Both the position numbers and the translations under genes were made by a program. A DNA stretch of 61,788 nucleotides, filler included, from Dugesia japonica (lineage: Eukaryota): the NCBI GenBank assembly GCA_001938525.1. It is 6 parts of 6 records of this genome, joined end to end, with 100 filler letters (N's around TTAATTAATTAA, not from the genome) between each part and the next. Parts side by side here need not be neighbours in the genome. Positions count along the whole stretch, not along the records: positions 31,033 to 41,858 come from MQRL01458300.1; 5 more parts are not named here. One strand, given 5' to 3'. Under the pieces are notes generated by a model, which saw only the letters and a list, made by a program, of their open reading frames with translations, did no database searches and was not told the DNA's origin. Positions 711 to 61,652 of the stretch are shown piece by piece. Within the stretch, counting starts at the first letter, position 1. Every line of letters starts with the position of its first letter.

Positions 711-1503
711 AAGCAGTTGTTAGATTATAACGATTATGAAAAATTTTTATAATAAAAGATGTCGTGAGGTGTTAATGAAAGATGATATGTGAAGAACGAG
801 AGAGGTTATGATGTTTAGTAAGAATGAAAGATGTGATGAGATGCTACGGTATCTTTGAGATGATGATGTAAAGTAAAGTAAGAGATATTATTGAGCATCC
901 ATATGGTATGGGAGATGTTAATATGTGACGAGAGTTGTGGTTGATGAAGTGAGCGTGTTATTTGAGTAATAATAGAAAGCAAATTGTGAGTAGAAGTTGA
1001 AGATCTTCATTGAATAAATTATGTAAATTGAAATGAACAAATAAGTGTTGGTGTTGAATCTTAGCCTATTTGAATATTGATTTATTATATGTTGTGTTAT
1101 AATATGTTTGCACAATTTATATGAAAATATTATTTGATTGATATTGATTAGTTTTATTGCAGAAAATTGTTAATGGAATAACGTTTTGATATTTAATTGA
1201 GCTGGCCGATGGATCAATANTTATTCGGAGGAGGATGGATCTCTCAGTTAACATATGATTATGAACAGGTACATGAAGATGAATTAACGAAGATCTCTTG
1301 AAATAGAATGTGACTGGATGGTTAACATGAATATAGATAGAGAATCCAACCTCATCCGCAATGACTATTGATCGTAAATCGGTCCAGAATAAACTTATAT
1401 ATTAATATTATTAATATTCTATATTAATAACATTAAATTATAATAAGTTAATATTCTTAAAGATTATTAGTAATGATATGAATTGTTAAAATTTTAAGAG
1501 TTA

Positions 1504-2046
1504 ATGCTAATATCTAGAATGTTCAAATCGCTGACGACGACAGTAGCCAATGAATCGTTAAAGCCAGAAGGGTGTTCCTTCTGGTCAAATATCATGAACA
1601 ACATGCCGAATTTGTGGGACTCAATTGGCGAGTATGGAACAGACCGTGATCTATGGTGGATCACTCAGGATTGCCTCCGGAAGAAGGACCAGGAGCTGTT
1701 AACTCTGAGAGAGAAATTAAATCGGCAGGAGGAAACACTACGACAGAAGGCCGAAATGTTGGAGGAATTGGATAAAAGAGTGGAACAGCGGGAGCAGCAC
1801 TACAACGATCAGCTAGCGGAGATCAGGAATAAACGACGGGGAAAAGAACTGATATCTTTGCTGATACGATCTACAGAAATGCGTCAATATCAACAGCGAG
1901 TAATCCAAAGTTTGCGTACTACTCAGCTTAAAACGGAAGAATTCAACAAGATGTCAGATCGGTTAAACATAAAAGCCGAAGCTATGTTACGACAAATTTT
2001 AATACCGCTCGATGGAACTATTGAAAACCAGGAAACTTTAGTGTGA
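1504..2046 (+). CDS. Intact 180-aa coiled-coil protein or exon inside the family A LTR
   Basis: Stop-free ORF, GC-richer than its flanks, with a heptad-like E/K/Q/R/L-rich core. Possible AG acceptor at 1516-1517. Confidence 0.6.
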   Translation: MLISRMFKSLTTTVANESLKPEGCSFWSNIMNNMPNLWDSIGEYGTDRDLWWITQDCLRKKDQELLTLREKLNRQEETLRQKAEMLEELDKRVEQREQHYNDQLAEIRNKRRGKELISLLIRSTEMRQYQQRVIQSLRTTQLKTEEFNKMSDRLNIKAEAMLRQILIPLDGTIENQETLV

Positions 2047-2308
2047 TTAATGTATGATCATTGTGTTAATCAGTAATACTGTTTAAACTCTAGTATTTTC
2101 ATGTCTTGATTATATTCAATGATAATGTGTTAAAATGAATCAACGGATTAGGAGGAGTTAAAAGAGAAATTCGTTTTAAATTTTTGTGAATTCCGATTTT
2201 AAATATATTTTTTTAAATATATTTTTTATAATATGCTGAATGATTTTATATTTGATAAGATAATTGTATAATTAAAGTTATGAATATTACATGTCGAATT
2301 ATTTCCAG

Positions 2309-2625
2309 TGACAGATACAAAGAAATTGACGAACACTTCAATCGTGAATATTCGAAGAAAGTAGGCTTCGTCACAAAAGAAACTGCAGCAAGAAATCGTA
2401 GAACTTCACCGAAAGAATGCTACGTAACGTGAAAAGAACACCAGATTACAGGATCGAGATCTGGCATTAGCTCAATCATGTCGGGCAATGGCGGACATTA
2501 TTAAATCGTATGCGGATCGGGAGAGCGTACTGATCGGGAGAGTGCGTACGCTCACACAAGCATCAAAATTTACGTCTGAAGTGGAAAAAGTAAAACCAAT
2601 GGATATCATTGAACTGGACGAATAA
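2309..2625 (+). pseudogene. Second coiled-coil exon in LTR (two in-frame stops)
   Basis: TTTCCAG acceptor. Frame reads ...KKLQQEIVELHRKN...AMADIIKSYADRESVLIGRVRTL...DE*, followed by AATAAA. Similar to FADVIRSLHDRENKLV at 32395-32604(-). Confidence 0.55.
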
Positions 2626-3046
2626 TCTTGACTGAAATAAAAGTTTTGTACAGCATGAATTTTGAATTTTCTTTGTTAATGTCGAGTAATGAAGTCTAAT
2701 AAATCAAAACGAGAACCGGATAGAAATTGAAATCTAAGACGGGATATAGCATATTCCTGCTGAATCCGGGAAAAGGGGGATTGTGTTACTAGAGAGAGTA
2801 ACATAAATTTCTGTGGTTGCTAGGTATCATTCCCCAGACAGAAAGATATTTGGAAGAGAAAGTTAATGCAATGAAGCGATTAGAAATAAAGATCAAAAGA
2901 AACAAGATATTAAAAACAACATCAAAAAGCCTAGCAACCCAACAGAAGTATTAAACCAAAATTTAATTACTAAAGAAAAATATAAGGTTTATAAAAATAA
3001 ATATATTCTATAAAGAAAATNNNNNNNNNNNNNNNNNNNNNNNNNN

Positions 3047-3716: not shown

Positions 3717-4050
3717 ATTTTCTAAAAACATTTGGGATAAATACTAAAACTAATTTTGATTTGTATTCTATTGCTAATTTTTTAAATCTTGAAATTGAGG
3801 TTTTAATGAAAGATGAATTAATTACAAAAGATAATAAATCAGTTGCGCGTGGCCGAATGATTATTAATTATCAAATTTCAAATCAAAAAGGAAGTCATTG
3901 GGTTGGTTTTCATAACGGTTATTATTTTGATTTTTATGGTTTAAAACCTTTTAAAGAAATTGAAAAACATGTAAAACAAAATTTGAGTTCAATCTTCTGA
4001 AACTAGTATTTGTGGAGTATTATGCTTATATTTCTTATATTCACTTTAAT
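3701..4050 (+). pseudogene. Polinton adenain-like cysteine protease
   Basis: IINYQ...GSHWV...YYFDFYG, then ETSICGVLCLYFL after a break. Confidence 0.8.
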
Positions 4051-4099
4051 TGAAGAGTTTTGATGACATTATTAATTAATTGTATATTACTTTAAATAA

Positions 4100-5350: not shown

Positions 5351-5379
5351 CTTTAAACCCAAATTATTACTAAAATAAA

Positions 5380-5966: not shown

Positions 5967-6092
5967 TTAATAAATTAAAAAAATAGTCTTACGCGTAAGT
6001 TGCTTTTGTTTTTTGAAATCTTATATATTTACATTTTAACAAAAGCGAATTGCAGTTCGCTATTTTTATATTAAAATACAATTTAATTTTTG

Positions 6093-9000: not shown

Positions 9001-9600
9001 CTCTAGTTGGTTGATCTTCAAATAAATGTTTATAAGTTAAAATTGAATAAAGAAAACAAAAATCATCTTTATTTTTAATATTAATTACACCTGGTTTAAT
9101 AAAAGGTAATTTTTTATATGATGACTCAACTAATTATTGCTATTTTGAAAGTTCAATTTTATAATCAACAATAAAATCTAAATTCCATCCACTTTCATAT
9201 TTTTGTCTTCATCTTCCATGTATCTTTGAAGTTGATTTAATAACTCTTCGACAATAATTTTTACATAACTTTTGATAGTAATTCTGTCATTATTTGAATA
9301 TGAATGAAATATTCTTTCTTCATCTTCTTTAAAGTAATTACAATTTACACTCAAACGTAATATCAAATTTTTTGAATAATCAAAATAAATATCAACAATT
9401 TTAGTAATTTCTTTTTTAAACCAGGTTATTAATTTAAAATTNNNNNNNNNNNNNNNNNNNNNNNNNNNNNNNNNNNNNNNNNNNNNNNNNNNNATTTTAT
9501 AATACTTTATATTTTTTAAATGTTTAAATAATTTTCGAGTTTCATTCTTTTCAAAATCAATTGCTTCATCTCCAGGTAATTCATCAAATAATATTTTAGT
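6093..9600 (-). pseudogene. polB: Protein-primed family B DNA polymerase (Polinton pPolB), many frameshifts
   Basis: Motifs IYGDFES, DHDHFNGEFRGYAH (EndoVII-like), KLDVIILADFF, YLDENSLYASCM, KNAFYGKT, YIGFTILE, YDDKR. The YxDTDS region appears deleted. Confidence 0.92.
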
Positions 9601-9650: not shown

Positions 9651-9860
9651 TGTGATTATGAGGAAATAATTATTATTTAATATTTTTGAGCCAATAGAAT
9701 TTGAGTTAATTCTGAATAAAGAGGTTTAAAATATTATTCAATAATCATTTCTCTCATTAAGGATAGTTTGTAGTAGTAAAATAAAAAATTTCTAACAATA
9801 TGAATTCTGTTTTGCAAAATGAATTAACAATTAAAGATTTACCTTACATGATAGCAGCGG
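9651..9860 (+). mobile_element. Probable short Gypsy 5' LTR (TG...TTACA, ending 9848) plus degenerate tRNA-iMet primer-binding site
   Basis: TTACA followed directly by TGATAGCAGCG (cf. TGGTAGCAGAG) just upstream of gag. The LTR start is uncertain. Confidence 0.45.
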
Positions 9861-11182
9861 TAAATACCGATTCTATTACTGAGAGGTTATCACCAAAGAT
9901 ATTCTGCAGAGGAGATGATATTGAAAAATTTAGTAAAAGGTGTGAATTGTATTGTGAAGCTAAAAACATCACTCATGTGAAACAACAAGAGAGATTAGTC
10001 TCTTATTTGTTAGATGACGATTTGTTAAAAGAATATACAGACGTTGAAAAACGTTGAAGGTTTTCAGGATCGTTTACGTATAGCATTTGAGAAAAAGAAA
10101 GATGCTATCAAAGATTTTCAAAATTTGATAAACTTCAGGCGTGGAAATGAAGAGATTCAAGTTTATTTTAGAAATGTAAAAGATTTAGTAAAAAGATTAT
10201 TTACAAATAAAGATTTTACTGAAGAAAATATGGTTGCAAAGATAAAAGAAAAGTTGAAGAAAAAGTGACTTTGTGGAAACGAGAGAATATAGAAAAAATT
10301 GAAGAAACAATGGCTTTAGTAGATCGAGTAGAGAAAAACATATATCGAGTTGATGTGGTTAGAAGTTACGCGAGAGTCGCAAATCGAAATTTATCAGAAA
10401 CCTGTAAATCATACAATGAATATACATGTGGATCAAAGAAAGGAAAAACAAAAGTAAAAAAATATCGAATGTTGGTTATTTCATAAGATCGGTCATACTA
10501 AAGCTAATTGTTCGACAAAAAAGTGGTAGAGTGCTGGAGTTGTCATAAAACAGGACACATAAGTCGAGATTGTCCAAATAAAAAACCAACTAAATGTTTT
10601 GGTTGTGGAAAGATTGGCCATATTAGAAAGTTATGTCAAGAAGTGAGGTGTAAACTATATGGTAATGGTGGATATAGAGCAGAAGAGTGCTGCACAAATT
10701 TGAAAATGAAAAAAGAAGAAAAATTTATGACTACAAAAAGATCAAGAAACCGATATAATCGAATAAATGTGATTGAAGATGCAGATGTCAATACAAAAGA
10801 TAGATATGAGGAAGTATATGAAAGTGATTTCGAATAGCAATTTCCAAAAGGCAGAGCTCTACCAGTAGAGGAATTGGTTGGAGCCATCCATTGTTAAATG
10901 AAGTTAGTAATTATCCTAAAAGAGTCGAAAAGTAGGATGATATCAGAAAAGTTACAGAAAAAGTATACAGATTCTTAAAGAGAGAAAAGTTTGCAGATGA
11001 TAGAAAAGTAGAATGGGTTAGAACAGTTGAAGCAGAAAAGAAAAAAAATATTTCATACCATAAATTGCAAGGCAGACCACGTGTTACAGTCTCAATTCAA
11101 GGGAAAATAGTAGAATGTCTATTAGATACAGGGGCTCGAATTAACGTGATCAGTTTGAGTTGTTTTAATAAACTACGAGAAG
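9861..11182 (+). pseudogene. gag: Gypsy gag (up to four CCHC knuckles) and aspartic protease, truncated by contig end
   Basis: CWSCHKTGHISRDC and CFGCGKIGHIRKLC plus two degenerate knuckles; protease VECLLDTGARINVIS at about 11110-11160. Confidence 0.88.
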
Positions 11183-18214: not shown

Positions 18215-18255
18215 TTAAGTAATATTATTTTAAATAAATAGAATTTAAATAAATA

Positions 18256-19886
18256 ATGTTAATTCAACCAAACAAAGAAGCACGAAAGATATTAGTATCT
18301 AATAGACGAGCTTTCATGGCCGACGATTGGAATATTGGATGTACTATGCTCATGAAGCATAAAATAATAACGAAAGAAGAGCCAATCAATATAAGACCAT
18401 GGCGTCATCCGATGAACTTAGATGACGAAATTGAAAAAACACTACAGAACTTAGATGAGAACGGCATCATCAGGAAATGTAATTCAAGATGGAATATGCC
18501 ACTAGTTTGTATATGGAATAAAGAAAACAAAAGGCTGAGATTATGTTTAGACTTTCGCCAGCTGAACCAAATATTGGAGAGACATGCATATTCAATGTCA
18601 AGCACAGTGGAACTGCTAGATAGGTTAAATGGAGCCCGTTTTTTCAACACAATTGACATAGGCAATACATATTATCAGGTTAAATTGGAGGAATCATCAC
18701 AGGAAGAAATAGCGTTCTCAACCAAAAAAAAGGTCAATACTGTTTCACGAGAATGCCATTCGGAATTGCAGCAGCGCCATGTGCATTTCAGGAATTGATG
18801 ACAAATGTACTGGGAACCACACCTGGAGCAATGGTGTGTATGGATGATATTTTAATTTAATCCGATAATGCCACGGACCACTTCAAAACACTGGACACTG
18901 TGCTGAAAGAAGTATGAAAAGCTTGATTACGTATCAATCCCAAGAAATGCAGTCTCCTGCGGAAAGAGGTAAAGTTTCTAGGACATATCTTAGACGAAAT
19001 CGGCTTACCAATAGATCCTACAAAAATAGAAAGTATACAGAACTTCGAGAAGCTAAAATTTACAAAACAAGTCAGAAGCTTTCTAGGTATGCGTAACTAA
19101 TACTGAAAATTCATCAAGGAATATTCTGCAAAAGCCAAAGCATTAGAACAATTATGTGGCAGAAACAAAAGACAGGCTAATATGGTCACCCATATGCAAC
19201 GAGGCATTTCAAGAATTGAAACTGGCTTTAATAAAAACACCAGTGTTAAGTTTTCCAGACAGAAATAAAGATTTCATATTAGACACTGATGCAAGTTTTA
19301 ACAGCATTGGGGCTGTGCTATCACAACTGGATGAGAACGGTCGAGAAAGAATTATCGCGTATGGGTCCCATGCAATGAACGCGTATGAAAAAGGATATTG
19401 TATAACCAGGAAAGAATTGTTGGTAATATACTACTTTTGTAATAGTTTCCGACATTATCTAAACAGTAGATGATTCATCCTACGAACTGATCATAAGGCG
19501 ATAACCTTCAAGATAAAGACAAAGAAACCAATAACAGCGCAGTTTCAGAACTAGATAAAATACTAAAGTAGTTTGGATATGGATATTCAATACAGAAAAG
19601 GAGAAGGACATTCCAATGCGGACATGCTATCCAGAATGGAGTGTAAAATTTTTGTACAATGTGAAATGCAGCATAAAGAAACGATGACAGGTAAGATTAA
19701 AACACAAAGATTGTGTACGAAGACAACGGATACGGAGTTCAAATGGCAGAAGGATAATGTTGAAATAAAGAATATAAAAAGAGACATCAACGACAGAAGA
19801 AATTCAGAATTTATAATAAAAAAGGGATAGTCTGAACAAAAAGCGACAAAATATGGATTCCAAAAGAGAAACGATCAAAATGGATG
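18256..19886 (+). pseudogene. pol: Gypsy pol: RT, RNase H and start of the integrase region
   Basis: RLCLDFRQLN, RMPFGIAAAP, MDDILI, FLGHI, FILDTDASFNSIGAVLSQ, RTDHKA, HSNADMLSR; several frameshifts and stops. Confidence 0.93.
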
Positions 19887-20382: not shown

Positions 20383-20759
20383 ATGAAGTAAGTTTTTTAT
20401 TTTATTTCAATATTTTTTACTTTATTAGTTCTTTTCAGATTAATCAAATTGGATTAAAATTGTTGGAATTGTCGTAGTTGGGAGTATATCCATTAGACAA
20501 ACTTCCATACTTTACAGTTAATAAAGCCTTAATCGTCAATACTGATAAATCAAATCTTGGTGGAGAACATTGGATAGCAGTTTATCATNNNNNNNNNNNN
20601 NNNNNNNNNNNNNNNNNNNNNNNNNNNNNNNNNNNNNNNNNNNNNNNNNNNNNNNNNNNNNNNNNNNNNNNNNATAACAAAATTAGATTTCAAAATCCGT
20701 TTACAACAACTTGCGGTCAACATTGTCTATTATGGCTTAAAAATCAACATTCTAGCTGA
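20383..20759 (+). pseudogene. Polinton adenain-like protease with predicted 41-nt intron (20388-20428)
   Basis: Spliced: MNSFQINQIGLKLLELS*LGVYPLDKLP...IVNTDKSNLGGEHWIAV...QNPFTTTCGQHCLLWL. Confidence 0.85.
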
Positions 20760-21319
20760 AAATCTTATGTAAAATTTTATACATTTTTTCAAATAACTGA
20801 AAACATTAGAATTTATTTACTTGATTTTTGTGAACATGATAATTTATTTGCTTAAAATTTTCAAACATTATATGTATTAAATGATTTTATTTTTTGAATC
20901 TTAATTAACATATTCATAAAAGTTTGAAGATTTTAAATATTTATTATTTATTAGTTATTATATTTATAGAAACTATTTATTAATATCTATTGCTTTTAAA
21001 ATATTCTACGATGTTTTATGAAAAATATATCTTTGCTTTTATGATTCTTTTTATTTTAAAGGCAATTTTCAATGATTTAAAAGAAATACTTTACATATTT
21101 TATTATTTAAAATATATATGCTACTTTTATTTTACAAAGAAGTCTTTGTTATAATTGCAATCATAATGCATATATATTGCAATTGTTGTTTTTTATATGT
21201 CACCAATCAGATTTAAATTAATATCATTTTTTCTTTTTAAAAAATATTATTATTTAACATGTTATTAAAATAAAATATTAATTTATTTAACATGATATTA
21301 AAATTAAATATTAATTTTA

Positions 21320-21472
21320 GAGCAATGTTCAAATTACAAGAACTACTGCTCCAATTCTTCCCATGAAACTGGTTGCCATAAAATAATGAAAATGTATTAT
21401 GGGCAAATGTTTTATGGGAAAAGGTACTACATATGTCCGACTTGTCGGTCTATAGAATTAGGAAAATATTAA
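21320..21472 (+). pseudogene. Possible RING-finger exon remnant
   Basis: TTTTAG acceptor; C..GCH..CPTCR pattern, degenerate. Confidence 0.35.
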
Positions 21473-21551
21473 AACATTATAGCTTGTATGCAGACCACCT
21501 AGCACAATTTACTAAACAATAAGCAAACACTATTAAAAATAATATTAAATA

Positions 21552-23457
21552 ATGGAATATCAGGCCCTGCATCAAAGAAAATAAAATCGAATGAACAGGA
21601 AACAATAATTATTCAAGATGAGGAACCAATGCAAGAGGAACCAATATTGATTGAAGATATGGAATCAATTCAAGAAGAACCAATATTGATTGAAGATATG
21701 GAATCAATTCAAGAGGAACCAATATTGATTGAAGATCATGAAGAGAAACCGATATTAATTGAGGATAGTGAAGAAACGATGGATGTTATTATGATTGAAG
21801 ATAGTGAAAAAGAGAATGACGTAGAAGATTGGAACAATTTTGAAGTGTAGTACGAGTATGACGCAAAAACGGACGATGGAGAAGATAATCACGTTGTTGA
21901 TTTGGATGATTGTATTGTCAGTGGATCATTAAGCGATGTGGTTATTGAAACGGATTTGTATCGTTGCTACCAGATATTAAAAGTAGACATCTCGTCATGG
22001 AATACGANNNNNNNNNNNNNNNNNNNNNNNNNNNNNNNNNNNNNNNNNNNNNNNNNNNNNNNNNNNNNNNNNNNNNNNNNNNNNNNNNNNNNNNNNNNNN
22101 NNNNNNNNNNNNNNNNNNNNNNNNNNNNNNNNNNNNNNNNNNNNNNNNNNNNNNNNNNNNNNNNNNNNNNNNNNNNNNNNNNNNNNNNNNNNNNNNNNNN
22201 NGATCAAGTTGGATTTTGAGCAGAATCCTTGAATTATTGTATATTAATATTAATAATCTATATGGTTGGGCATTAAGTCAGAAATTGCCTTATGCTGAAT
22301 TTAAGTGGGTCTATACAGGATTAGAAGACATTTTGGAAGAATGTAGATCAGCAGACCTGGACTCACTACCACATGGATTCACATTGGAGGTGGACATAGT
22401 TATTCCGGCCGGAATACAAAATAAATTAAACGCTTTACCTGTAGCAGCGGAACATCAATGCCCTCCAGGGTCAAAAGTGAAGAAATTACTACTTACTCAT
22501 TACCTGAAAATTAATTATGTAATTCACTGAAGGCTGCTGCAAATATACATACGATTGGGAGTACAGGTAACTAAGATTCATAAAGCAGTTAAATTCAAGC
22601 AAGCTGCGATTTTTGAATATTATATCAAAAAGAATACATTATTGAGATCACAATATACTACTGAATTGGAAAAAAATTATTATAAGTTGTTAAATAATAG
22701 TTTGTACGGTAAGTCTGTGGAAAATTTAAAGAAACGAATAAACTTTCGCTTGTGCAATTCAGCCAAGAAGTTGATGACCTATACATCAAAAGCTAGTTTT
22801 AGAAAATCAATAAAAATCGATCAAGACCTCATAGCTGTTCTTTTCAATAAGGATATTGTATGTTTCGATTGACCAAGCTACATCGGACAGACTGTACTGG
22901 ACCTATCAAAACTCCGAATGTATCAATTAGAATACAATCAGTGAAAAAAGTACAGGATAGAAGAAAAATGTATAATAAATATTGTAGCTGGCGATACGGA
23001 TAGTTTTTTCCTGGAGGTTAAAAATATAAGTTTGNAAAAACTAACCGGTTTAATGGTAAGAGATCAGTTATTGGATATATCCAATTATAGTACAAGTCAT
23101 CCCCTTTACTCAAACGCTTTAAACAGCGACATTGGAAAATTCAAGGATGAGAGTAAAGGTAAGAAATATAGCGAGTGGATATTTTTTAGGCCAAAGTGTT
23201 ATTGCCTACTTAGCGATAAGGAATCCATGAAAGCTAAGGGCATAACACTAAAAAATAGTGGAATCATACATCATTTATATCTTGACTGTTACAATAATAA
23301 TGCAATGGTCTTTGTAGATCCATTTCAAATATCTACTCGAAATCATCAACTGTACAGCATAACAAATAAAAAACTAGCTTTATCCAATATGTATGATAAA
23401 AGAAAGTGGTCGGAAAAAAATTTAAGCTTACCGTACGGATATTATAAATTAAATTAA
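21552..23457 (+). pseudogene. polB: Polinton pPolB (second lineage); exonuclease region missing at the N gap
   Basis: NNLYGWALSQKLP, KLLNNSLYGKSVEN, YIGQTVLDLSK, AGDTDSF, GKFKDE, KAKGI, YDKR, LPYG. Confidence 0.9.
21620..21775 (+). repeat. 39-bp coding tandem repeat (QEEPILIEDMESI) in the acidic N-terminal region
   Basis: Two near-perfect and two or three partial units. Confidence 0.85.
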
Positions 23458-23523
23458 AAAATAACATTTATAGTACTTTTTCCCATTTGTGATCTCAATA
23501 AAACATAAGCTTGTCTCAAATGG

Positions 23524-31032: not shown

Positions 31033-31390
31033 TATAAGAACCCCCATGACCGCAACGCCGGGGTGTTCCCGGATTATACTAATTTATCGGAGGTAGAGGC
31101 CGAAAATGAAAGAGAATGGGACGCAGCCGAGCGGCGTGCGTATTATGAGTGCACTGGCCCAGTCAGATCCCGAGAAGTGTTTCACACAGCCACAGCGTTT
31201 TCCCCAATCAGTACCGAGAAATTTAGCACCATCAGTGACTGGAGGGAAAGCCCGTCAGTAATCCCAGTCTCGGCGGCTCATGTTCCACCTTTCGCTGTCT
31301 TGAGAGGATCAATCGGCGACACGGTATGGGATCTACGTAATTCATGGAGTAGGGCTCACAACGAAAAAGTACAGAAAATGTTAGAGGCAA
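31033..31390 (+). CDS. GC-rich open coding fragment, unknown (only the first ~110 codons of ORF 31063-31599 look real)
   Basis: Roughly half-GC open frame that drops abruptly into AT-rich sequence at about 31390. Confidence 0.35.
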
Positions 31391-31934
31391 TTTTTTTTCT
31401 TCTTTCTTTCCATATTTCCGGTTTACCTATCGCAAATTTTTATTTTCTATACCAAGTGTTTCACCTCAACAGTATTATATTAAAATTAATTCTTGAAATA
31501 TTTTTAAAAATTATTTACAATATTTTATTTTTTAAAAAAGTATATAAAATATTTAAAAATAGAATACATTTTTGTCGAAGTACTTTATTGAAAATTTAAA
31601 TTAGTTTAAATAATTTTTATATTGTATTGTATAAAAATTATTTTTAACAAAAATATCTTTTAAATTATAATATTTTTTGAAATACTTGGGTTGGGGTTCC
31701 ATCTGAGTTGCAGATAGAAAAATATGACTGAGGAAAAAGACAGCCCTAAGAGGATCCCGCAAAGAATTTAACCTAATGTCCCTGATTTAGGCCTTCAGTG
31801 CAGATTCGTTGACTCCCAACGTTGATTTGGAGTGCCTACTCGTACACCTTTCATTTGGGATCGAGAGTTTCCTACTATATTTAAATATACGGAGACAAAG
31901 ACATAATTTATAAACATTTATTTACAAAACATTA

Positions 31935-32262
31935 TTAGACACTGGGCTGGCTCGTCATTTGAAAAGTCAATTGCGGCCTCATCATTGTCACTGTTCCAAG
32001 GAGACCAGCTTTCTATTTAGAGTCGCGCAGACAAATCCGCTATGTACTGTTTAAGAAAAGTGACCTAATTAGACAGCTGCAGGTTCGTCCAGTTAACTAT
32101 TTCTAATTATTTCTTGTTCACCAATTCGAGCTTTTTTATAAGCCGATTCTGTTAGGAAAGGAGTCGTAGTGACCGCTAGCACCTTTTCCAGTAGTGCCTC
32201 TCTATTATGAACTTTATCAATTTATGACGTCGTGGTGAATTTGGTAGTCCGACTCTTGGCAC
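31935..32262 (-). pseudogene. Coiled-coil terminal exon, homolog of 40833-41144
   Basis: QNRLIKKLE...FLKQYIADLSARL*IESWSPWNSD versus RNRLIKKLD...FLQQYIADLANRLEQENWTHWNSE; same TAG|TG acceptor. Confidence 0.75.
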
Positions 32263-32394
32263 TAGATATAAGAATATCAATTAAAAAACAATATATGAAA
32301 ACAAATAAAGCTATTTTAAGCAAAACACAAAATTAAAACTATTTAGAAATTTAAAACACAAGTTAGTTCCTAGTTTGTCTGGTTTTGTCGATCA

Positions 32395-32614
32395 TTAGCG
32401 CAACTCCACGAAATCAGTTACAAGTTTATTTTCACGATCATGGAGGGAACGGATTACATCAGCGAACGATTCAAGCTGGCGCTTCCAGATGCGTTCTTGT
32501 TTATGCGATGCTTCCGCTTCATCTATGCCTATAAAGACTGAATTTGACTCTCCGCCACCACTTGGGGCTCCCAATTCCGTTTGACCAGACGGTAGAGGTC
32601 CCAAGAAATGTCAA
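32395..32614 (-). CDS. Coiled-coil exon related to 2309-2625
   Basis: QLESFADVIRSLHDRENKLV versus SCRAMADIIKSYADRESVLI. Confidence 0.45.
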
Positions 32615-35600
32615 NNNNNNNNNNNNNNNNNNNNNNNNNNNNNNNNNNNNNNNNNNNNNNNNNNNNNNNNNNNNNNNCTGAATAGATGATTTATAGGACA
32701 AGTTATTAGAAATTATTATATCAAACTTAATTAAGATGATGATAGAAAACCTAAGGCGAACATAAGCATTTAATAAAAAGACTCAACAATTTAATTATAC
32801 TAAGAATTTATTACAAAACAACTAATCTAAATAAGTCACGAGGGGATGTCACTGGAGAATTAAAATAATTTTCTAACTCTAACCACAGGTGAAGATGGAG
32901 AGTTTAAAGTGGGCTTTTACGTTAGGCCAGTTACGATATAACCAGCGCTTGGATTCATCGCGGCCACGCTGGTGGTCTGCTTCAGAAGAGACCAAATTCG
33001 ATCGAAGAAGAAGTTTACCTTTAAAACCATTGGACAAGGTTTTACGCTGTGATTTGGCGAAGTGGTTATCAGAAAATTATTTATGTGAGCGAACAATTTT
33101 TATCAGACGAGAAGTGTTTTTCCTTGATAAACCAGATGACTAGAGAATACATTCAAACAAATCGGAAGTCATTTATCGTCCATGGCAACAGAAAAACATA
33201 TTGTGGTATGGGCCATGGTTCTGCCAAATTGTCTCTTATCTTGTCCAATGGTTTTAGTGGTAAACTTTTTCTTATTTTCTTGTACCTCATGCCTTATTGT
33301 TTAGGGGAACATGGAATTGTAAATCGTGAAACTTGAATATTGCACGTATTAATAAATTTCTTACAATTTACCTTCCGTCGATTGTCCTTCAGATAACATA
33401 TTTCCACTTTCAACCTTAACTTATAGGCAGCATTTAATTAAGGTTTCGGTCCTCTTTTCATTGACTTTGTTATAAATCTTTTTCGGCAAATACTAATAAC
33501 ACAATTCCTAGATATTTTGGTTTTTTCAGAAATTCTTGTGTAACTCCAACCTTCCTTTCGTAAATAAAAATTTGATTTTTTGATCCTCAGCCTTCATAAC
33601 TACATTATACATGAATTATAAATAAAAAATCCAAATGCAATAAGAACTTAAATTTATTTCAAATATTATACTGTTGTCAATAAATTTGCTCTTTTGAAAA
33701 AAGTATAATTGAATATTTAACCAAATAATAAATTGTTTAACTTAAAAATTATTTCAATAATTAATACTTTGCATAAACATACTTTTTTTAATTAAAAAGT
33801 TAATGTATTTCTAAAAATAACTAATTTCAAGTGTTGTCGAAAAATTTGCTCATCAGTATATTAAAGAGAATGAACGCCAATAAATCTAGTAAATCTAAAC
33901 AAGGAGTTAAACCATAGGTGATATACCATTTTAGTTGTTCTACTGACAAACTCGATTTTCAGTCATTGATGAGATTAACCACTCAACAAAAAATTTTTGG
34001 TTATCACCACTACTGACTAGATTGATCTTATCGAGTTGTTTGTTGGCTAATTACATACATTTTTCTATCTAACTACATTGATGAAATTCAAGCAGGTAGG
34101 TTTTGATCATGAATCAGTTTTACTGCCTGTTTATGGAAGTTAAATAAGGCACACTGCCGCTGGATATAATGCTCAATCGTTTACTTGCGAAATCTTACTG
34201 CAGATCAAGAAAAATTTGTNGATGAAAAACTACTGATAGTTAATCGAATGTCAATAATGGCAGTTGGCAGTTCACTAAGAATATGCGGAGAATATGTGGA
34301 GTGAATCTCTATTTCTGGTTATAATTATTTGACAGAATTTGATAGAAAGTAAAAACTAGGATATTATCATTGTGAGCAGTTTTGAAAAGCAAGTTGAAAT
34401 TTTTGTGTGATTGGTGATCTTATTTTTAAAATCTTTTGTTTAAANNNNNNNNNNNNNNNNNNNNNNNNNNNNNNNNNNNNNNNNNNNNNNNNTTAAGGAT
34501 AAATTAAAATTATTGAATAATAAAGTTTAACTTTTTAATAAATAAAATTTTGAAAGTGAGCTGAGATTTTGTCGTCAATTTTTAAATAAAACTTTAAGTA
34601 AATAATAAAATGTTTTCAAGTGGATCAAATTAATTTTGATAAATAAAATTTTAAAAGCAGTTAAAATTTAGTTGTAAATTTTTAAATGGAAATTATTAAA
34701 ATAAATAAAATGTTTTAAGTGGATCAAATTAATTTTAATAAATNNNNNNNNNNNNNNNNNNNNNNNNNNNNNNNNNNNNNNNNNNNNNNNNNNNNNNNNN
34801 NNNNNNNNNNNNNNNNNNNNNNNNNNNNNNNNNNNNNNNNNNNNNNNNNNNNNNNNNNNNNNNNNNNNNNNNNNNNNNNNNNNNNNNNNNNNNNNNNNNN
34901 NNNNNNNNNNNNNNNNNNNNNAGTTTTGATTTTAATAAAGTGTTGTAATGAATTCGAATTTTGATATTGATGATACGACGAGTTTTCCAAACTCAACTAA
35001 CAATCATCATATAAATTTTATTAATCAGAAATACATGCAAAAATTATATCATCAATGACTCAAAAGTTACTAAATGATTAATTTGGATTTCTGCAACGGC
35101 AAGATTTATTGTTAACGAAACACTGGTAATTTCTTTTATTCGGATAAATTGAGTCCACTGATCGATAATATTAATTCCTCTTTAACTGTTATAGTTGAGA
35201 TTTAATTAACGCAAGTTGACTGATTTATCTTAGTTGTTTTTTAAGGGTGAAATCATCTAAAATTTAGGGGGTTTTATACCATTTTACCTTGCACCCTTGG
35301 TTGATTTTGACTGGTTCGTATTTTTAAATCTGGTTTCCACCGTTTGTATTATTCCATAGTATAATTTTCAGATTTTTCTGTAAATTTCATATGTTCTATT
35401 GGTGGCTATTTTTAGACACCTTCTGAATTTTTTCTTTGTTTTCGCTTTATCAAAGGTCTCTCATTGCTCCGATCTTTACAACCTTTTCCCGACCCTTATG
35501 GTTATGGTAATTTTCTTGACCAGATCGGATTCCTCATGCTCTCATCTATCCAGATTTACTTTCCTTGACTTATTCTATCTTTCTGATGAAAGTTGCCGCT

Positions 35601-36729
35601 TTTTCATATTTTCTACGAATTAAATTTCTTTTTTCTTGAAAATTAGTTAATTTTTTCTTATTATTCCCTGTTTCAATTTTAATAATATTTTATATTATTC
35701 AGGTATATTTTATAATTCTTTTTAATTATTGTTTATTGCCCATTACCCTCAGCATTGTCTTTTATTATTTTCTTGATAATTTTTCGTATTTTCTTCTGAT
35801 CTTCAATATTTTTCCTCTTGTTGAATACTTACTGATGATACTTCCGAGATTTATCCTGATTACTATTAACTGAGGCTTCTTAATTTTATTGATATTTCAG
35901 GCTTTGGTTGATCCTTACTTCGTGGGCCGGTGTTTCATCCCAACATTTATATTACTGATTTTTTAAAATAGTAAAAATTAATTGGAAAATTATTTTGAAG
36001 GATTATTAAAAAAATATAGTACATTTATTATTTTTGAAAATCCATATTTTTAAATATAAATTTTAAGTTCTCTGATATGGATTATTTGTTTAAATATGAT
36101 GGATTATTCTTACATCTTTTTAACTTTTATAAAACAATTGTGATAATAAATAAAACTTATGGAAAATTGTGAAGTTCTCAATTTAACTAATGTTGTGGTC
36201 ATGGGTGATATGGTTCAAAATTATATCAAACACAACTCGCAACTGGGATTTAGTGTGCCCGTCTTATGAGTACGTTGATAGTAGCCCCGGCGACTCTTAC
36301 CCAAGAGTGCTTGAGCGTACCATCTGCATATTATTTGGGTTCGTTTGACAACGATAGAAGTCGTATAAAGGAGAAAAATCAATAATTTACGATCATAATA
36401 TTTTACAGTGGAATTTACAATCCATGTATACAACGTTTATTCGATAGATTAACAAATCAGTCATCCTCGGAAAGATCGACAAATACTTTCCAGATTTTTT
36501 TTGGGGNGGGAGGTACTGAGGAGTTATGTAGGTTATGTAGGAGCTCACTTAGTTGATTGTTTTCAGTTCGGAGCCACTCCACTTCGGCTTCCAACTCCAA
36601 GATTCCAATACCCTAGGCTGTGTCCCTCTAGATATATTCAACATTTTGACCTCGACGTTGAAACATCTCGAAAACGAGTATGCCTATTTTTTCTTGAACA
36701 TTAGTTTGATTGAATTGAATGATGGTACT

Positions 36730-37249
36730 AGTAAGTTTAATCGTCAATGATAATAGTATAATATTATAAATATTATAATAGTAATAATTAATGTGTAACA
36801 ATAATAACGATAGAAATGGTCGTTATAAGAGTGCTGGAATTAATAATAATAATCTAATGGTCGTTTTAATAATATTGATGACGGTCGAGAAGATAAAAGT
36901 AATAATAACCTTAGAACTAATACTTATAATACTAATGATGATCCAAGCCGTAACAACTAACAACAATAACACTAATACCCCTAATAAATAATAGTAATAA
37001 TTGTAACAATAATGATTTAAATAATACTAATAATGACAAAATAATAGTTTTGATAGTCCTAATAGTAGTAATATATGGTAATGATAAAAGCGATTATCGA
37101 AGTGACCCTCGCTTAAAAATAATGACATCAATTAATAATAATTAAGAATAATATTGATTAAAGGTAAAAATAATGATGTAATAGCAACGACAATAGTAAT
37201 ATAATATTAATAATAATAAGAGTAATAATAATAAAAGTAGTAATAATAG
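36730..37249. repeat. Degenerate (AAT)n low-complexity tract
   Basis: AAT/AGT/GAT triplets. Confidence 0.7.
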
Positions 37250-38894
37250 TGATGGGCTAGAACATAAACAATCCCGATAATAGTTGTAACAAATAAATCA
37301 AGTAAATTAAAGAAAAGCAAGGAAAATAAATTAAATTGCAGGAATTATCGTGAAAAGAGAATAAAAATATAAAACATCGGTCGAAATGATGATTAAAATA
37401 ACAAATTATGAGGTGCTGGGCCAGCAATTATGATTAAGATTATGATTATTATTATGTAATTATTATTATTATAAATATTATGAATTTTTTTTGGAAAACT
37501 TCGAAAATCGAAAATCGGGCGTAAGAAACCCTAAATTAATACAGAAATAAAATATTAATTAATATATTGAAATATTAATTTTTATACAGAAATAAAAATT
37601 ATAAGTATGAGTAGTAAATGAAAGGTTAAATAAAAACAATAATAAACAATAATTTAATAATATATTAGAAGTGTCTTTACGACCCGTTTTATTTCTTATA
37701 AATAATGCTAAATAGCGTTTAATATTAATTATTCTTTTAATTAATGCTGATCAAGTAATCAGTCCCTGTCTAGCTGAGAAAAAATAAATTGAAAATAATC
37801 AGCAAAACAGTTGAATCATCTCATGCTAGACAAGGACTTTGTAACGAAAACATCCGGTTATTCAGAGGTCAGGTGAGGTGAACGACTGAATAATCTGGAA
37901 AATTGCGAGTTGTTATGTTAATTACCACCATACCTAACCAGGANNNNNNNNNNNNNNNNNNNNNNNNNNNNNNNNNNNNNNNNNNNNNNNNNNNNNNNNN
38001 NNNNNNNNNNNNNNNNNNNCAGCAGTTCATTCGATTCATTTTTGGGCATCGGTCGAATAAAAACAGAAAAACACTACAGAAAAAAAACTTTTCACTTTTT
38101 TGATTAAAAATTTACTAAGTTTTGAACCACATTTTAAATTACTGCCTGATTGAGATTTTACTTGGTTTCGAGCAACATATATTATTTTTTTAAATATTAT
38201 TTGATTTGAAATGTTTACTTATTTGAGAAAATAATATCCGAGGAGAAATTCCAGAAAATAAATTACAAGTAAATCTTTGATTGTTATCATGTTCCTTTCT
38301 TGTTTGATGTAGTATGGTGTCTTATAATTTAATTTTGTTTAGTTTAAATCTGATAATAAACTTATTAAGATCATGATATTTTAATTAATTTTGTTTATTC
38401 ATTTATTTATTATTTGATTTTTGAAGTAAATAATCATTAATCAACTTATCAATTAAGTATTAATTTTATCGTGAAGTAAAAGAAACCGAGACTTCATTTT
38501 GTAAAAGTTTCATATGATCATTACATGATCATTATTCTATCATCGAATATTTAGATATAAATAAATAGTTATTGTTGTTGAGAGAGTATTTTTGTGTTCT
38601 AGTTTTGTATTATCAGTTTTATTTTGTGTATAAGCTGTGATAATGAGAATTGAGATGGTAGAAGTACTGAGCAGGGTATAAAAATCACGTGCCAGGATAG
38701 AGAACTTCATTGTAAAGACGCGAAACCACATAGTCGCGCTGAATCCGCGGAAAAGAGGGACATGTCACAGAGGTGACACAAATGCTTGTGGTTTTTAGGT
38801 GTGCCCCTAGACATTACGGTGAGATATTAAATATGAAAGTGAGATCCGAGTTATAGAGAAAAAATTAAAAGATCAAAATCCTAAAAACCCAACA
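37250..38894 (+). mobile_element. Solo LTR, family A, 4-bp TSD ATAG
   Basis: TGATGGGCTAGAACA...CCTAAAAACCCAACA; ATAG at 37246-37249 and 38895-38898; collinear blocks shared with 59794-61652. Confidence 0.85.
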
Positions 38895-40023
38895 ATAGTA
38901 TTATTGAAAGCCCTGATAATAATGGTAGATTAGCAATTCATTAATCCTTAATTCATAATGTGAATGCTCCTGTGAATTTATGATGCTTTATTTATATGAA
39001 ATAAAAACCTAATCATAATAAAAGCAAAGTTTAGAACTCAAAGCCGGTATGGGAAAAGACATAATAAATCAATGACAATAAAACTAATAACAAAACAAAA
39101 AGTAAATTAAACTAGGTTATATGAACGCATATAATTACATAATAAAATGACGAAACATACTTAATTGATAACTACGTTTGAGCCAGAAAGTGGATCTTGA
39201 ATTGACTGGATATTGAAAAATTGACGTTTGCTGTGAAAATGAATTTAATTCATCACTTCGATGCGAGATTCACAAGTAATTGAAAAATTAATATTTTTCT
39301 CTCTTTTTCTGTTNNNNNNNNNNNNNNNNNNNNNNNNNNNNNNNNNNNNNNNNNNNNNNNNNNNNNNNNNNNNNNNNNNNNNNNNNNNNAATTACAAATG
39401 AGAATTTAAAATGATTTCCTGTTTTGAACGGGTTATCAAACGACAATTACGAGTTTTGAGGTTTTAAATTGCTTGCGATAATAAATTCGCGGGATGATGT
39501 TCTTTGATCGGAGAATATCGAGTCTCGATTTGAATTTCAATTGCAGGATGTAAGTTGGAAAATGAAATTTTTAATATGTGTTTCTCAGAAAATTTTAATT
39601 CTTAATTATCGATCTTTGAATTGAAAATTTTTCAAGTTTTTCTGGAAATTTGAATTGTTTTTGATTATTTACTATCTGCTAGGTCTCGTTTCCAATAAAA
39701 TCGCTTGTTACCAAACGTGAATTGATACGAGAAGATTGGTAAAGGTAAGTTTCATATGTTTTTAGCCCTTTTTATACTAATTTTTTGTTCAGATTCGTTG
39801 ATCATTGGTTGCTTTTTTATCCAATTTTGGAGTTATTTTCAGTAAAATTGCTGTATTCTTCAGAAAATTGATCATTTCAACATGTAATTTATTTCTTTAT
39901 TTAATTATTTCTGGAATTTTTATAAATAATGTTTTCTTTATTTTATAACATGCTTCCATTATCTATTTTCAGCTGAATATTTTCATTATTATTGTTTAAT
40001 TTTTAATATATTATTTATTATTT

Positions 40024-41429
40024 TGTTGGGATGAAACACTCAATCAAAATTGAAGAGGAATATTTACGGGGTAATTGAATTCCCCAACGAGAAAACTCTA
40101 CTATCATCAGGAGAGTCTAGAAAAAGTTTTGAAGATTCAGCCAATAGTAGACCAGAAAATAAAGAAAAAACAAAGGCATGGAAACACGAGGTGTCCTAAA
40201 AATAGGCAGCAATAAAGCAGCTGAAAATCATGAAAATCTTTAGAATCGAATCGGCACCAATAAGAAGTAAAGATGACAAAATAAAAAAAAGCCGACCAAC
40301 TGGAAAGTAGCGGTGATGCACGTGAAAAGCTATATAAGCTCGTCAAAATTAAGTGCAAAAACCAACTAAAAAACTAAAATATTCAAGTTTTAACTACTTT
40401 ATTTTGATCATCAGATTGTTGAAAAGAAAATTCCCGTTCACTTTTGGACAAAAAGAGAATAAATTACCGTAATACCTTAATCATTTTTGACTTGAATTAT
40501 ATCTTATAAAAGGAGAAACTACGTCAATTAACTCGTTATCACATCGTTCAGAGAAAACCGGAAACCAACCTGTTGAAGAAATCCGTAACAAGAATATTTG
40601 AAAGAAATTATTATAATTTTATTTTCGATGCGGTTGATATGTTATGTTATAATAAATATTTAATGGATAAAAGGACTTACCTGATTTAGCTTGCTAAAAG
40701 TAAATGCATTTAAAAAAGAAAAACACATACAATTCATAGTAAATTTTATTCTATTTCTATTAAAATTATTTTAAATTTATTCTATTAAAAATAAACTATT
40801 TAAATTAATTCTTAATTATTTACTTCTTTGTAGTGTCTAGAATTCGCCCACCATCAAGTCTCCGCCGTTGTCACCACCTCATACAAAAATTGTTACGTGA
40901 ACGTCACATCAAGCGACAAAATGAACGTGCTCTCCTGCGTCACCTTACACAGCGGAATCGTCTAATAAAAAAATTAGATAAAAAACAGGGAGAGTTGGCA
41001 GAACACACCAATCAAAACCTGACCTATAAAATTGAATTCTTGCAACAGTATATAGCTGATCTGGCAAACCGCCTTGAACAAGAAAACTGGACCCACTGGA
41101 ACAGCGAGACCTTCAATTTTATGAATGGTGAGCCCACCCAGTAGTTAGACCCTGGTGCTCTAGACTTTATGTGAATAATGAAAAATAAACCTTAATATCA
41201 GTTTATTCTTAATTTGTTTGATAAAGTAATTAATAGGGAAATGATGAACCCAAAATAAAGGTGTACGAGTGAGCACTTCAAGTAAGCGTTGGAAGTCAAC
41301 CACTCTACACCGAAAGCTTAATTAGGGACGCTAGGAAAATTATGGGACGGGTGTACCCTGAGGGGTGTCTTTTACCCCAGCTATACTTTTCACTATCTCC
41401 TTTTACTAGACTCAGGTAAGACCCCAACA
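40024..41429 (+). mobile_element. Solo LTR, family B (internally deleted), 4-bp TSD ATTT
   Basis: TGTTGGGATGAAAC...GACCCCAACA; ATTT at 40020-40023 and 41430-41433. Confidence 0.85.
40833..41144 (+). CDS. Intact coiled-coil terminal exon within the solo LTR
   Basis: TTCTTTGTAG acceptor, 103 open codons, AATAAA near 41184; diverged homolog at 31935-32262. Confidence 0.7.
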   Translation: MSRIRPPSSLRRCHHLIQKLLRERHIKRQNERALLRHLTQRNRLIKKLDKKQGELAEHTNQNLTYKIEFLQQYIADLANRLEQENWTHWNSETFNFMNGEPTQ

Positions 41430-41691
41430 ATTTTATCATGATTCTTCATAAGTAGGTTGCAGAATTAATAATAATTAATTGGGTTTTGTCCCAACACTAA
41501 TATAATATATCATTTATATTATAAATTATATATAATATAATAAATGATATGGATGCAAAAGATACCGGTAATAAGTAAAATTTTAGCTTCAAACTAGTTA
41601 GTTTTGATGTTTTCAATAAGTAATAAATCGTATTTCCCAAATAATTTACGTTCAAAAAAATTAACAAGACAATTTAATAACTCGAATTTAG

Positions 41692-41858
41692 CAAACAATT
41701 CGATGCTTAAGAAAGAAAATCGGAATTTATAGCTTTTCTTGCAGGTGTGACGGTTATTATTGTACTGTTGAAAGATTTCCTGAATCGCATCAATGCACAT
41801 ACAATTATAAAGCAGGGGGTCGAGAGAAAATAACTAAACAAAATCCAAAAATTATTGT
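41692..41858 (+). CDS. AN1-type zinc finger (ZFAND5/6-like) exon, divergent, cut by contig end
   Basis: RCLRKKIGIYSFSCRCDGYYCTVERFPESHQCTYNYKAGGREKITKQNPKII. Confidence 0.75.
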
Positions 41859-41958
41859 NNNNNNNNNNNNNNNNNNNNNNNNNNNNNNNNNNNNNNNNNN
41901 NNTTAATTAATTAANNNNNNNNNNNNNNNNNNNNNNNNNNNNNNNNNNNNNNNNNNNN
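41859..41958. other. Artificial contig spacer
   Basis: 44N-TTAATTAATTAA-44N. Confidence 0.95.
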
Positions 41959-47692: not shown

Positions 47693-48127
47693 ATGCTATT
47701 GTTAACAATAAAGAAAAAAAAGTTCTTTAAACTTTTACCAGTAAAGACAAATATCAAAATAATAAGGAAATAGTTATACAATTAAGGAACAAAAATATGA
47801 TATACTTTAGTAGTGATATTAAATTCTATCATTTTATCATTTGATACTTTAAAAAATTCGGAAAGATTTCTGTACGACAGAGCTTAAGTAACACAATCGG
47901 GTAATATTGTAAATCTTGATATTAGTAAACATATTGAAGATAAAACTTTTACTGTTCGATTTCATAAATAAATAACAAATAAATATTAAATATTATTATG
48001 CGATTGTAACTAAACGTTATTTTAAATTTGAAACCAATTTGTATATAAAGGATTTAAATCAACTAAATGAATATATTAAAAAACACCTTTCAATGTTATT
48101 TAAAACGTTTCATTAAAACAAGATGAT

Positions 48128-48670
48128 CTATGTCATCAGTGCAAATGCAAAATTCATTCCAGAAATTTCAAAGAAATTTAGAAGTTCTAGGTTATTATGA
48201 GTAACATATTTATCACAAAACTGTTGGTAAAAATCTTCTAATAGAAAAACATTAAGTTTCAAGTAAACTAAGTTGTAATCCAGCAAAAACTTGCGATTTG
48301 TTGATTTAAATTTTTCTGCACCTTTTTTGTATGCATCTTCATTAACATTTTCCCATACTGCTGGTATAGTTTTTGTAGATTGTAACACATCAGGATGGGT
48401 TGCAAAATTATAGAAAAATATTGCTTTTGATTTAATAAACGTTGACTTAAATTCAATCAATGCTGATACTGCCTTTTCCAATAAAACTGTAAAAAATTTA
48501 TAAGAATTAATAAATTTTACCGGAACTTCTTTTAACTAATCCTAGTGTATTTAGTTGAGAAAATTCTTTACGTAATACTATGCAACAAATTAAGTGGATA
48601 TGTTTTTCATGGCCTTTAGTTGGCAGACGTTTTGCGTAATATTTCATAATTGAGTTAAGTGGCTCAAAAA
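48128..48670 (-). CDS. Two-exon coding fragment joined by a 34-nt intron (48488-48521), unknown protein
   Basis: ...MKYYAKRLPTKGHEKHIHLICC...KRSS|VLLEKAVSAL... is in frame after removing GTAAAA...TTTTACAG. Confidence 0.4.
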
Positions 48671-59793: not shown

Positions 59794-61652
59794 TGTTGGG
59801 CTGGAACAGCAAAATTACTCGAGGTAAATAAGGAATAGAGAGTAGGAAAATTGGATAAAATGACAAAGAATAGACACGAAATTGATGAACTGGACCAGAA
59901 ATATTATCAAGAGAATTGTTATAATAATTATTATGTAATTATTATTATTATAAATGTTATGAGTATATTATAAAATAACGAAAATCAAAATTGGGCAGGA
60001 AAGACCCAAATTTTATGTTAAAAAACTGAAAATAATATCAGAAGAAAGGAAAAGAATAATTATTAATAAAAATAATTATTATTATAATTACAACTGGTCC
60101 AGTCATCAGTCCTTGTCTAGCTGATGAAAAATAACACGAAAATAATCAGCAGATGAGCTGAATTATCCCCTGCTAAACAAGGACTTTCTCTTAGTAATAA
60201 GCAAAGGTCACACGAGGTGACTGAGAAATAAATATCAGTGCAAAAAGTTGGTGTGCACAAATTATGGATGACACAATGAAGAGAGAAGCCGGTACACCAA
60301 CTGCACTAATCATCTAATCGGATTGAGTGAAAATTGCAGATAATTGGCCGGCTAATGAGAAGTTGTATCTGGAAAGAGAAAAGTCGAATAAAAGGGAATA
60401 CCCTTTTAAAAATCGGCAGAGTTTTTGTTAAAATTTTTAAACGGCTAATTATTAGTTTTTTTTGGAAAATTTAAAGAAGGATAATTACTAGTTGAAAACA
60501 GTTTATTCACACAGAAAATTTTGCTCAATAATATTTTGCGAAACGACACTTTTGGAGAAATCAGATCGATCAATTGGAAAAGAAAAACACAATCGAAGTA
60601 AAAATTCTTTATATTTTTCATTAGTAATAATTATCATAATCGAGTGCCATTCTCAGAAATTGCCTCCACATGAATGACCAGGCTCTTGGAAAATATCCAA
60701 ATATTATATGAGAAGTAAAGTTGGGGTAATGACACTTAAGTCAGCCGGACGAATTAAGCGAAAAGTTATAAAGATGTGAGCATGATAGACGCAAGTTAAG
60801 TGANTGTATTTTACATGTGGATATGAGAGATATCGGGGCAGAAAAGAAGCCAATATGCTGATAATGATAAGCTTGGAAGGAAAAGAGAGGTGGACTTGGT
60901 TGCAATTTTGTAGAGATTATGCGAATGTTCAAAAGAGGAACAGTGGAAGAGCTCTGTCAGTCATGTGTAGTTGGATAACTATGACTTTGCAGATTTTACA
61001 AAATGTGTTATGCTCGTTTCGCTATGGTTACTTTTATTTTGGTTTTCTTTTATTAATTATAAAGCTTTAGTAAAATAAATTATATCTATTTAAAGAATTT
61101 TTTAGTTATATTTTTCTCGTTACAGTTAATTTTCCTTTGATTCTTTGCTTTGGAAACGTTATTAAATTTTATATTAATAAGTTATCTTTTATGCAATCTG
61201 AGGAATTTTCAGCACTGTACGAGAGAGTGCAATGTTCCTGTCACTACGAAATGAGAATCTCCGCCATCCATCGAAGCTATGAATACGACTGTGGATTTAG
61301 ACGCCGATGGAGAGTAGTTTTTCGGTTTCAATAAATATGGTTAATTGGAAATGGAATGTTTTTATTTTTTTTTCTGTTCACTAAATGATATTTGATAAAG
61401 GTGAAATTAAAAAATAAGATGATTTAACACTGAGCAAATAAAGATATTTTACTGTGGGGTTCAGTAATCCTGTAAATAAGACGCGATACCGAAAAGTCGC
61501 GCTGAACCCGTGGATAGAGAGGGGCACATCACAGAGATTTGCAAACGCTTGAGGTTTTTCGGTTGCCCCTAGACTAAGTGACAGTTTATTAAAAGTGAAT
61601 GAGAGTGAAGAGAATTTTTAAGTTAAAAAATAAAAATCCTAAAAACCCAAAA
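59794..61652 (+). mobile_element. Solo LTR, family A, inserted into the Polinton TIR
   Basis: TGTTGGGCTGGAACA...CCTAAAAACCCAAAA; flanks TTAT/ATAT (3/4 match); homologous to 37250-38894. Confidence 0.8.

Follow-up and report, generated by a model that had tools for sequence, protein, structure and literature searches.

Repeats with solo-LTR-like ends

The window analysed here is a stretch of 61,788 nucleotides from Dugesia japonica (GCA_001938525.1), in which we describe five repeats (A to E) that resemble solo long terminal repeats (LTRs) of retrotransposons, two of which, copies A and B, share a coding exon. The window is a chain of six joined assembly pieces, as shown by identical 12-base linkers between N runs at ~11227, 19931, 30977, 41903, and 51673 (letters compared at three), and adjacency across pieces is not biological. 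It is AT-rich (16-33% G+C per 2 kb) and contains 34 N runs. A, B, and E lie on one piece (31033-41858). The features of A and B, in window positions, are the following, with U3, R, and U5 standing for the unique 3', repeated, and unique 5' regions of an LTR.

40024..41429, plus strand: copy A, solo-LTR-like, 1406 bp, ends TGTTGGG...CCCAACA
40020..40023, plus strand: left copy of the target duplication ATTT, 4 bp, perfect; right copy 41430-41433
40331..40338, plus strand: putative TATA-like box of A, aligned with a TATA-like box of B at ~35278
40700..40833, plus strand: intron-like stretch of A, 13% G+C, putatively spliced
40834..41144, plus strand: coding exon of A, 43% G+C; TG of a split codon, then an open run of 102 codons closed by TAG at 41142-41144
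41184..41189, plus strand: candidate poly(A) signal of A, AATAAA 40 nt past the stop, followed by T-rich sequence; another AATAAA at 41254
41236..41429, plus strand: conserved non-coding 3' block of A, 45% G+C, 75% identical to B (z 24), likely R-U5
31689..35945, minus strand: copy B, related to A and decayed; its native sequence is 35243-35945 plus 31689-32812
32813..35242, no strand assigned: remnant of a nested inverted-repeat DNA transposon in B, 2.43 kb, with 28-nt inverted arms that are 86% complementary
32390..32614, minus strand: second coding segment of B, open for 71 codons before a stop, 47% G+C, resembling the last segment of C
31942..32261, minus strand: homolog in B of the exon of A, compared over 106 codons; acceptor-like AG at 32262-32263
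31689..31871, minus strand: 3' block of B, homologous to 41236-41429 of A, 75% identity

An earlier note on this DNA had described A as bounded by TGTTGGG...CCCAACA with a 4-bp target duplication, and the ends are indeed exact, with flanks ATTT/ATTT. A perfect end pair with a duplication of this kind arose in none of 60 simulated windows. The note had also seen an intact exon with a splice acceptor and a poly(A) signal. The split codon and 102 open codons are present, as are an acceptor-like ttctttgtAG (AG at 40832-40833, with candidate donors at 40700 and 40739; sequence prediction) and an AATAAA, but AATAAA occurs nine times in A and its surroundings show no alignment with B (z 0.3). The open frame of A is weak evidence taken alone, a stop-free run of at least 102 codons being reached in 163 of 2000 simulated elements. 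The exon has no methionine before its last seven codons, and no upstream coding exon common to A and B was found. Four TATA-like matches occur in A, and the one that aligns with B lies ~500 nt upstream of the exon (5' alignment z 4.1). Candidates for the TATA box, AATAAA, and T/GT-rich element fit more than one U3-R-U5 arrangement, on both strands, and the 3' block holds a donor-like CAG|GTAAG (41413-41420) that is not kept in B.

Copy B is the inverted relative that had been reported. It is collinear with A, with the first 16 bases exact, a weakly similar 5' region ending in the TATA-like box, the exon (47 of 94 residues identical, the protein motifs NRLIKKL, FLxQYIADLxxRL, and WxxWNS quoted in the earlier note, and AG|TG at the same position), and the terminal block. 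Its apparent size, taken before as that of a giant ~4.3-kb LTR, is misleading because 2.43 kb belong to the nested transposon (32813-35242); 1825 bp remain, 63 of them N. The nested element has TA at both outer ends and is inserted ~35 nt after B's TATA-like box. From its motifs we take it to be Tc1/mariner- or pogo-like, its presumed transposase fragments not being detected by Pfam; a helix-turn-helix match stayed below threshold there (E 0.0014). Copy B is old and decayed, as seen from the lack of a target duplication (flanks TAAA/CAAG), the altered last base, and five in-frame stops among the 106 codons of its exon (codons 28, 36, 51, 65, and 81, with no frameshift). A non-standard genetic code behind these stops was rejected, there being no stops in A's exon, in 182 codons of C, or in a 330-codon frame elsewhere. 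The start of B's second segment is hidden in an N gap after an acceptor-like AG.

Selection on the shared exon and its predicted product

Over 94 aligned codons, the exons of A and B agree at 54 first, 69 second, and 36 third positions (57/73/38%), and 26 of the 47 identical amino acids are encoded by different codons. This is the conservation at the protein level that had been proposed for B's exon, although B itself, with its five stops, no longer has an open frame. The protein alignment scored 181, none of 2000 shuffles exceeding 56, and the other five frames scored 23-82 and contained 4-10 stops. The dN/dS check suggested in the earlier note gave a pN/pS (nonsynonymous over synonymous differences per site) of 0.41, not near 1, for the single pair A/B (bootstrap 0.31-0.54, synonymous sites saturated); the value is conservative, since the decay of B raises the ratio. 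The non-coding 3' block, by contrast, retains 75% identity. As a protein-guided alignment can bias a codon-position test, we simulated neutral divergence to the observed identity, and none of the 2000 runs showed as large a difference between position 2 and position 3 as the real pair. On the basis of the codon-position contrast, the pN/pS, and these simulations, it appears well supported that the exon evolved under protein-level purifying selection in the element lineage.

AlphaFold2, run on the single sequence, predicts the exon product of A as one helix spanning residues 7-96 (predicted local distance difference test, pLDDT, 90; predicted template modelling score, pTM, 0.50). Its first half carries 17 K/R against 3 D/E and its second half 2 against 8, a charge make-up from which we infer a possible basic nucleic-acid-binding arm on a dimerising helix. 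A PDB search returned only three coiled-coil chains, weak matches of geminin type (E 0.25-0.44). No homologs were found among 4 and 172 candidates or among 1.84 billion representatives, and the protein had no usable Atlas match, no Pfam family, and no match in 29 viral stretches. The single metagenome match (one of 321 stretches) was discarded as a chance match of 28 residues within a bacterial gene of sensor type. Viral folds gave no match either, which is uninformative for a single helix, and DNA patterns from the 3' block matched nothing in the viral and prokaryote collections.

Elements of the same build and their surroundings

Three further elements share the end type of A and B:

1046..2944, plus strand: element C, another family of the same build; 3' end CCCAACA clear, 5' end tentative, flanks TAAG/GAAG
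1498-2046, plus strand: first coding segment of C, a 182-codon open frame, charged and helix-like
2309-2625, plus strand: last coding segment of C, AG|TG-led, with 2 stops
37250..38894, plus strand: element E, same end type, duplication ATAG/ATAG, a relative of D
59794..61652, plus strand: element D, same end type, flanks TTAT/ATAT, a relative of E

We scanned the window for end pairs 1.0-2.5 kb apart with duplications, allowing at most two mismatches, with the 60 simulated windows as control. Five pairs were found, corresponding to four distinct elements (A, C, D, and E), against a mean of 0.5 in the simulations. In all five elements the inverted ends comprise only 7 bp and two further paired positions; TGTTGGG...CCCAACA is exact in A and has one mismatch each in B, C, D, and E. 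The 4-bp duplications are perfect in A and E, have one mismatch in C and D, and are absent in B. The elements measure 1.4-1.9 kb (C, D, and E 1.6-1.9 kb) and belong to at least three distinct families, D and E being related (z 13). A terminal-repeat retrotransposon in miniature or large retrotransposon derivative (TRIM/LARD) was ruled out by the absence of terminal direct repeats in A, C, D, and E. In D, but not in E, short segments that are GC-richer and led by an acceptor lie near 61000 and 61215. Starts of the TGTTGGG type without a matching end within 2.5 kb also occur at 26943, 5343 (minus), and 44840 (minus), and the one at 5343 matches 13 of the first 14 bases of A and B.

Two stop-terminated coding segments with AT-rich linkers between them are present in both B and C, as alternative last exons would be. 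The second segment of B resembles the last segment of C (13 of 32 residues; score 46 against a maximum of 41 in 2000 shuffles; positions 41/69/9%), a pair picked by eye and hence weaker evidence. Given this resemblance, coding segments inside the repeats appear to be a modular feature of at least two families. The exon of A showed no similarity to the last segment of C (859 of 2000 shuffles scored as well). For the long frame of C (182 codons), no homologs were found among 69 candidates, and its Atlas matches (0.91-0.94) were not used, being unrelated coiled-coil clusters with low recognition. The 3' block folds better than shuffles only in C (z -3.0; one of five).

Elsewhere in the window, gypsy remnants with gag (CCHC knuckle) and reverse transcriptase/RNase H are found at 9785-11182 and 18253-19886, on separate assembly pieces and with no LTRs of the A/B type beside them; lying on different pieces, they provide no tie to the LTR-like repeats. 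Decayed frames at 3000-9600, 20400-23500, and 48100-48540 are presumably Polinton/adintovirus-like (polymerase B, protease, capsid-like, judged from motifs), with only a weak endonuclease VII match in Pfam. About 260 nt past copy A lies an AN1-type zinc-finger fragment (41692-41859, Pfam E 3e-6) cut by the end of the piece. The piece starts with an open GC-rich stretch (31033-31400), and between B and E is a short helix-like open frame (36460-36612, minus); neither has a Pfam match. Rfam gave no matches in 31600-41450, and no tRNA was found.

Origin and possible expression of the repeats

We put at about 0.5 the probability that A and B are solo LTRs of related Ty3/gypsy-type families and that the shared exon is the last exon of a spliced accessory mRNA. 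That the elements are LTRs of some kind, under any of the three LTR models considered here, is very probable. Solo LTRs are the best reading because the ends match the LTR integrase end signal TGTTRNR...YNYAACA (PMC3601003) and are too short for Ginger transposons (PMC2836005). No terminal direct repeats, transposase, or pol remnants were seen in the segments scanned; the Pfam scan for transposase covered A in three frames, the 5' part of B in three frames, both B exons, and both C segments. In this reading, ~1.2 kb of the LTR would be U3, holding the exon, and the conserved 190-bp 3' block would be R-U5. Transcription would begin in the 5' LTR, at its 3' end; an upstream exon would supply the start codon and be joined to the acceptor within the 3' LTR, and the RNA would terminate at the poly(A) signal of that LTR, as for sag and rem of mouse mammary tumour virus (MMTV). 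Such a layout is the simplest; it accounts for the missing start codon and needs no poly(A) suppression. The product may be a small basic-then-acidic helical protein, probably a coiled-coil dimer, regulating the RNA or expression of the element. Recombination between LTRs would leave solo copies with the main promoter downstream of the exon; these would be silent for protein and decaying, like B, yet would offer an acceptor and a poly(A) site to host transcripts. Taken together, the solo-LTR appearance and the selected exon make an element-encoded accessory protein likely, as the earlier note proposed; the giant size that it gave the LTRs is not supported.

Several observations weigh against this interpretation. 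Within the window, no primer binding site, polypurine tract, or gag-pol lies next to any copy, and no conserved coding exon was found in D or E. The U5 donor of A is absent in B, and splicing it directly to the acceptor would leave the exon with no in-frame start before it. A self-contained cassette is the better fit for the TATA-like box that A and B share, in alignment, ahead of the exon. The 3' blocks of A and B show no excess of folding over shuffled sequences (z -0.7 to +0.7). The selection test concerns one pair, of which one member is dead, and the exon of B has five stops against six in the neutral simulation, with no frameshift, a count that we cannot fully explain beyond an AT-biased mutation pattern. 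The term coiled coil draws on the helix prediction and the weak geminin-type matches, and the heptad pattern is itself weak (at best 7 of 20 hydrophobic a/d positions).

The main rival, the self-contained expression cassette of the earlier note, places a complete transcription unit inside the LTR, from which every intact solo LTR could make protein: a promoter at the TATA-like box at ~40331, an intron of 95 or 134 nt, an ATG formed at the junction, and an end after the AATAAA at 41184, with a second U3 promoter or an unusually long R (~850 nt) as variants. We regard it as unlikely, though well ahead of the remaining alternatives. It agrees with the aligned TATA-like boxes and with the two donors nearest the acceptor (40700 and 40739), either of which would yield an ATG at the junction, but donors with A before GTAA/GTAT are common in the DNA of the window (3.4 per kb), and such boxes, too, arise readily by chance. 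Coding segments start with AG|TG in A, B, and C, compared with 5% of the YAG sites in the window, and several U3 promoters are known in MMTV (PMC12789967). Half or more of A's words occur in 16 of 24 listed sequencing runs, several of them small and of unrecorded kind, which is not evidence of expression. Of these 24 runs, all under one coded organism label, 20 from 8 studies contain the stretch at least in part, with no RNA data set listed among them. Set against these points, the leader would hold upstream ATGs, neither the leader nor the AATAAA region can be aligned in A and B, and a long R would place a poly(A) site in the 5' LTR transcript that needs suppression.

The TGTNR ends, 4-bp duplications, and introns of Ginger transposons (PMC2836005) also raise the idea that the repeats are non-autonomous DNA transposons whose inverted ends are very short, mobilised by a gypsy-integrase-like transposase of the Ginger kind and carrying a spliced passenger gene. 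Such ends and a duplication are seen here and no gag-pol link is seen in the window, but Ginger inverted repeats of ~40-300 bp (PMC2836005) contrast with 7 bp in all five elements, the scanned segments hold no transposase remnant, and the elements, from at least three distinct families, all fall within 1.4-1.9 kb, a size that fits whole solo LTRs; this origin is improbable. Still less probable is that the LTRs read in the opposite direction, the exon being an antisense accessory gene as in plant Grande, RIRE2, and Retand. Extra antisense open reading frames (ORFs) are common in plant gypsy elements (PMC7264820), and the opposite strand of A has an AATAAA, then a long T-rich stretch, as well as a strong donor-like CAGGTAAGT. 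Against this, the 5' part of B has no antisense AATAAA, and the conserved GC-richer block would become the start of U3, usually the least conserved part (PMC3601003). That the exon is a host fragment captured by chance, without function, is highly improbable: although A's open frame alone is within chance and B's exon is dead, the codon pattern between two collinear families indicates long selection in the element lineage, and protein searches found no host homolog.

Protein-coding LTRs are textbook knowledge for a few retroviruses, MMTV and human immunodeficiency virus 1 (HIV-1), and the MMTV LTR, at ~1.3 kb, is similar in size to the repeats described here. The U3 of MMTV holds the whole sag ORF and exon 2 of rem (PMC12789967). 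As in our preferred interpretation of solo LTRs with a last exon, LTR coding sequence in MMTV (sag, rem) and HIV-1 (nef, overlapping U3) is reached by splicing and lies upstream of the main promoter and poly(A) site, and coding sequence that appears to have been under selection lies wholly inside the repeat in A and B, as in a U3 ORF of the MMTV type. However, MMTV and HIV-1 are vertebrate retroviruses with env, whereas here the acceptor and intron-like stretch lie ~800 nt inside the repeat, some copies have two coding segments, and the protein is unrelated, a single predicted helix. Accessory proteins are known from other LTR elements: the orphan CERV of Caenorhabditis elegans Cer1 is made from a spliced mRNA and exports genomic RNA (PMC10309623), and splicing is typical of the third ORFs found in rotifer LTR elements (PMC5408684). 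These and the plant extra ORFs lie between the LTRs (PMC10309623, PMC5408684, PMC7264820), unlike the exon here. Ginger1 and Ginger2 are alike in TGT...ACA ends, 4-bp duplication, and introns, but have long inverted repeats and an integrase-like transposase (PMC2836005); the former are absent here, and no remnant of the latter was seen in the segments scanned. Burro, with GYPSM1, has an internal region of up to 25 kb, exceeds 30 kb overall, and carries accessory domains in the polyprotein or internal ORFs (PMC6431247). The likeness is that of gypsy-type elements with accessory ORFs; at 1.4-1.9 kb, with nothing to link them to Burro, the repeats do not bear out the Burro-type giant LTRs suggested before.

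A possible lead comes from GLT2 of Schmidtea mediterranea, a repeat named in Repbase-based annotation whose RNA rises on smedwi-2 knockdown (PMC8532177, PMC10954484). Inspected by eye, the reverse strand of the GLT2 probe (PMC8532177) has an AT-rich stretch of ~100 nt ending in AG|TG, followed by an open, charged, helix-like frame that shares 9 of 33 residues, ungapped and without statistics, with the long frame of C. This comparison concerns the first 400 of 485 printed probe letters, and the accessible part of the paper is silent on whether the probe lies in an LTR. Neither of the two GLT2 primers matched the window at up to three mismatches. The available portions of PMC11410931 and PMC13238120 contain nothing on LTR structure.

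Our literature search found no account of an animal retrotransposon whose LTR wholly contains a selected exon led by an acceptor, though Repbase, subscription papers, or the 2018 planarian genome paper may record one. A bolder possibility, which we hold to be doubtful, is that animal LTR families moved accessory genes, introns included, into the LTR and that intact solo LTRs are complete spliced coding units, each with its own promoter, a start codon created by splicing, and a poly(A) site. Solo LTRs, usually regarded as regulatory debris, would then constitute a large dispersed family of helical proteins whose trans effects fall on full-length elements or the host. With five such repeats in 62 kb, their number across the genome is probably large. 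If our interpretation is right, repeat masking of this genome would conceal a whole family of orphan accessory proteins. Solo LTRs would then carry either ready-made last exons able to truncate host transcripts or whole genes.

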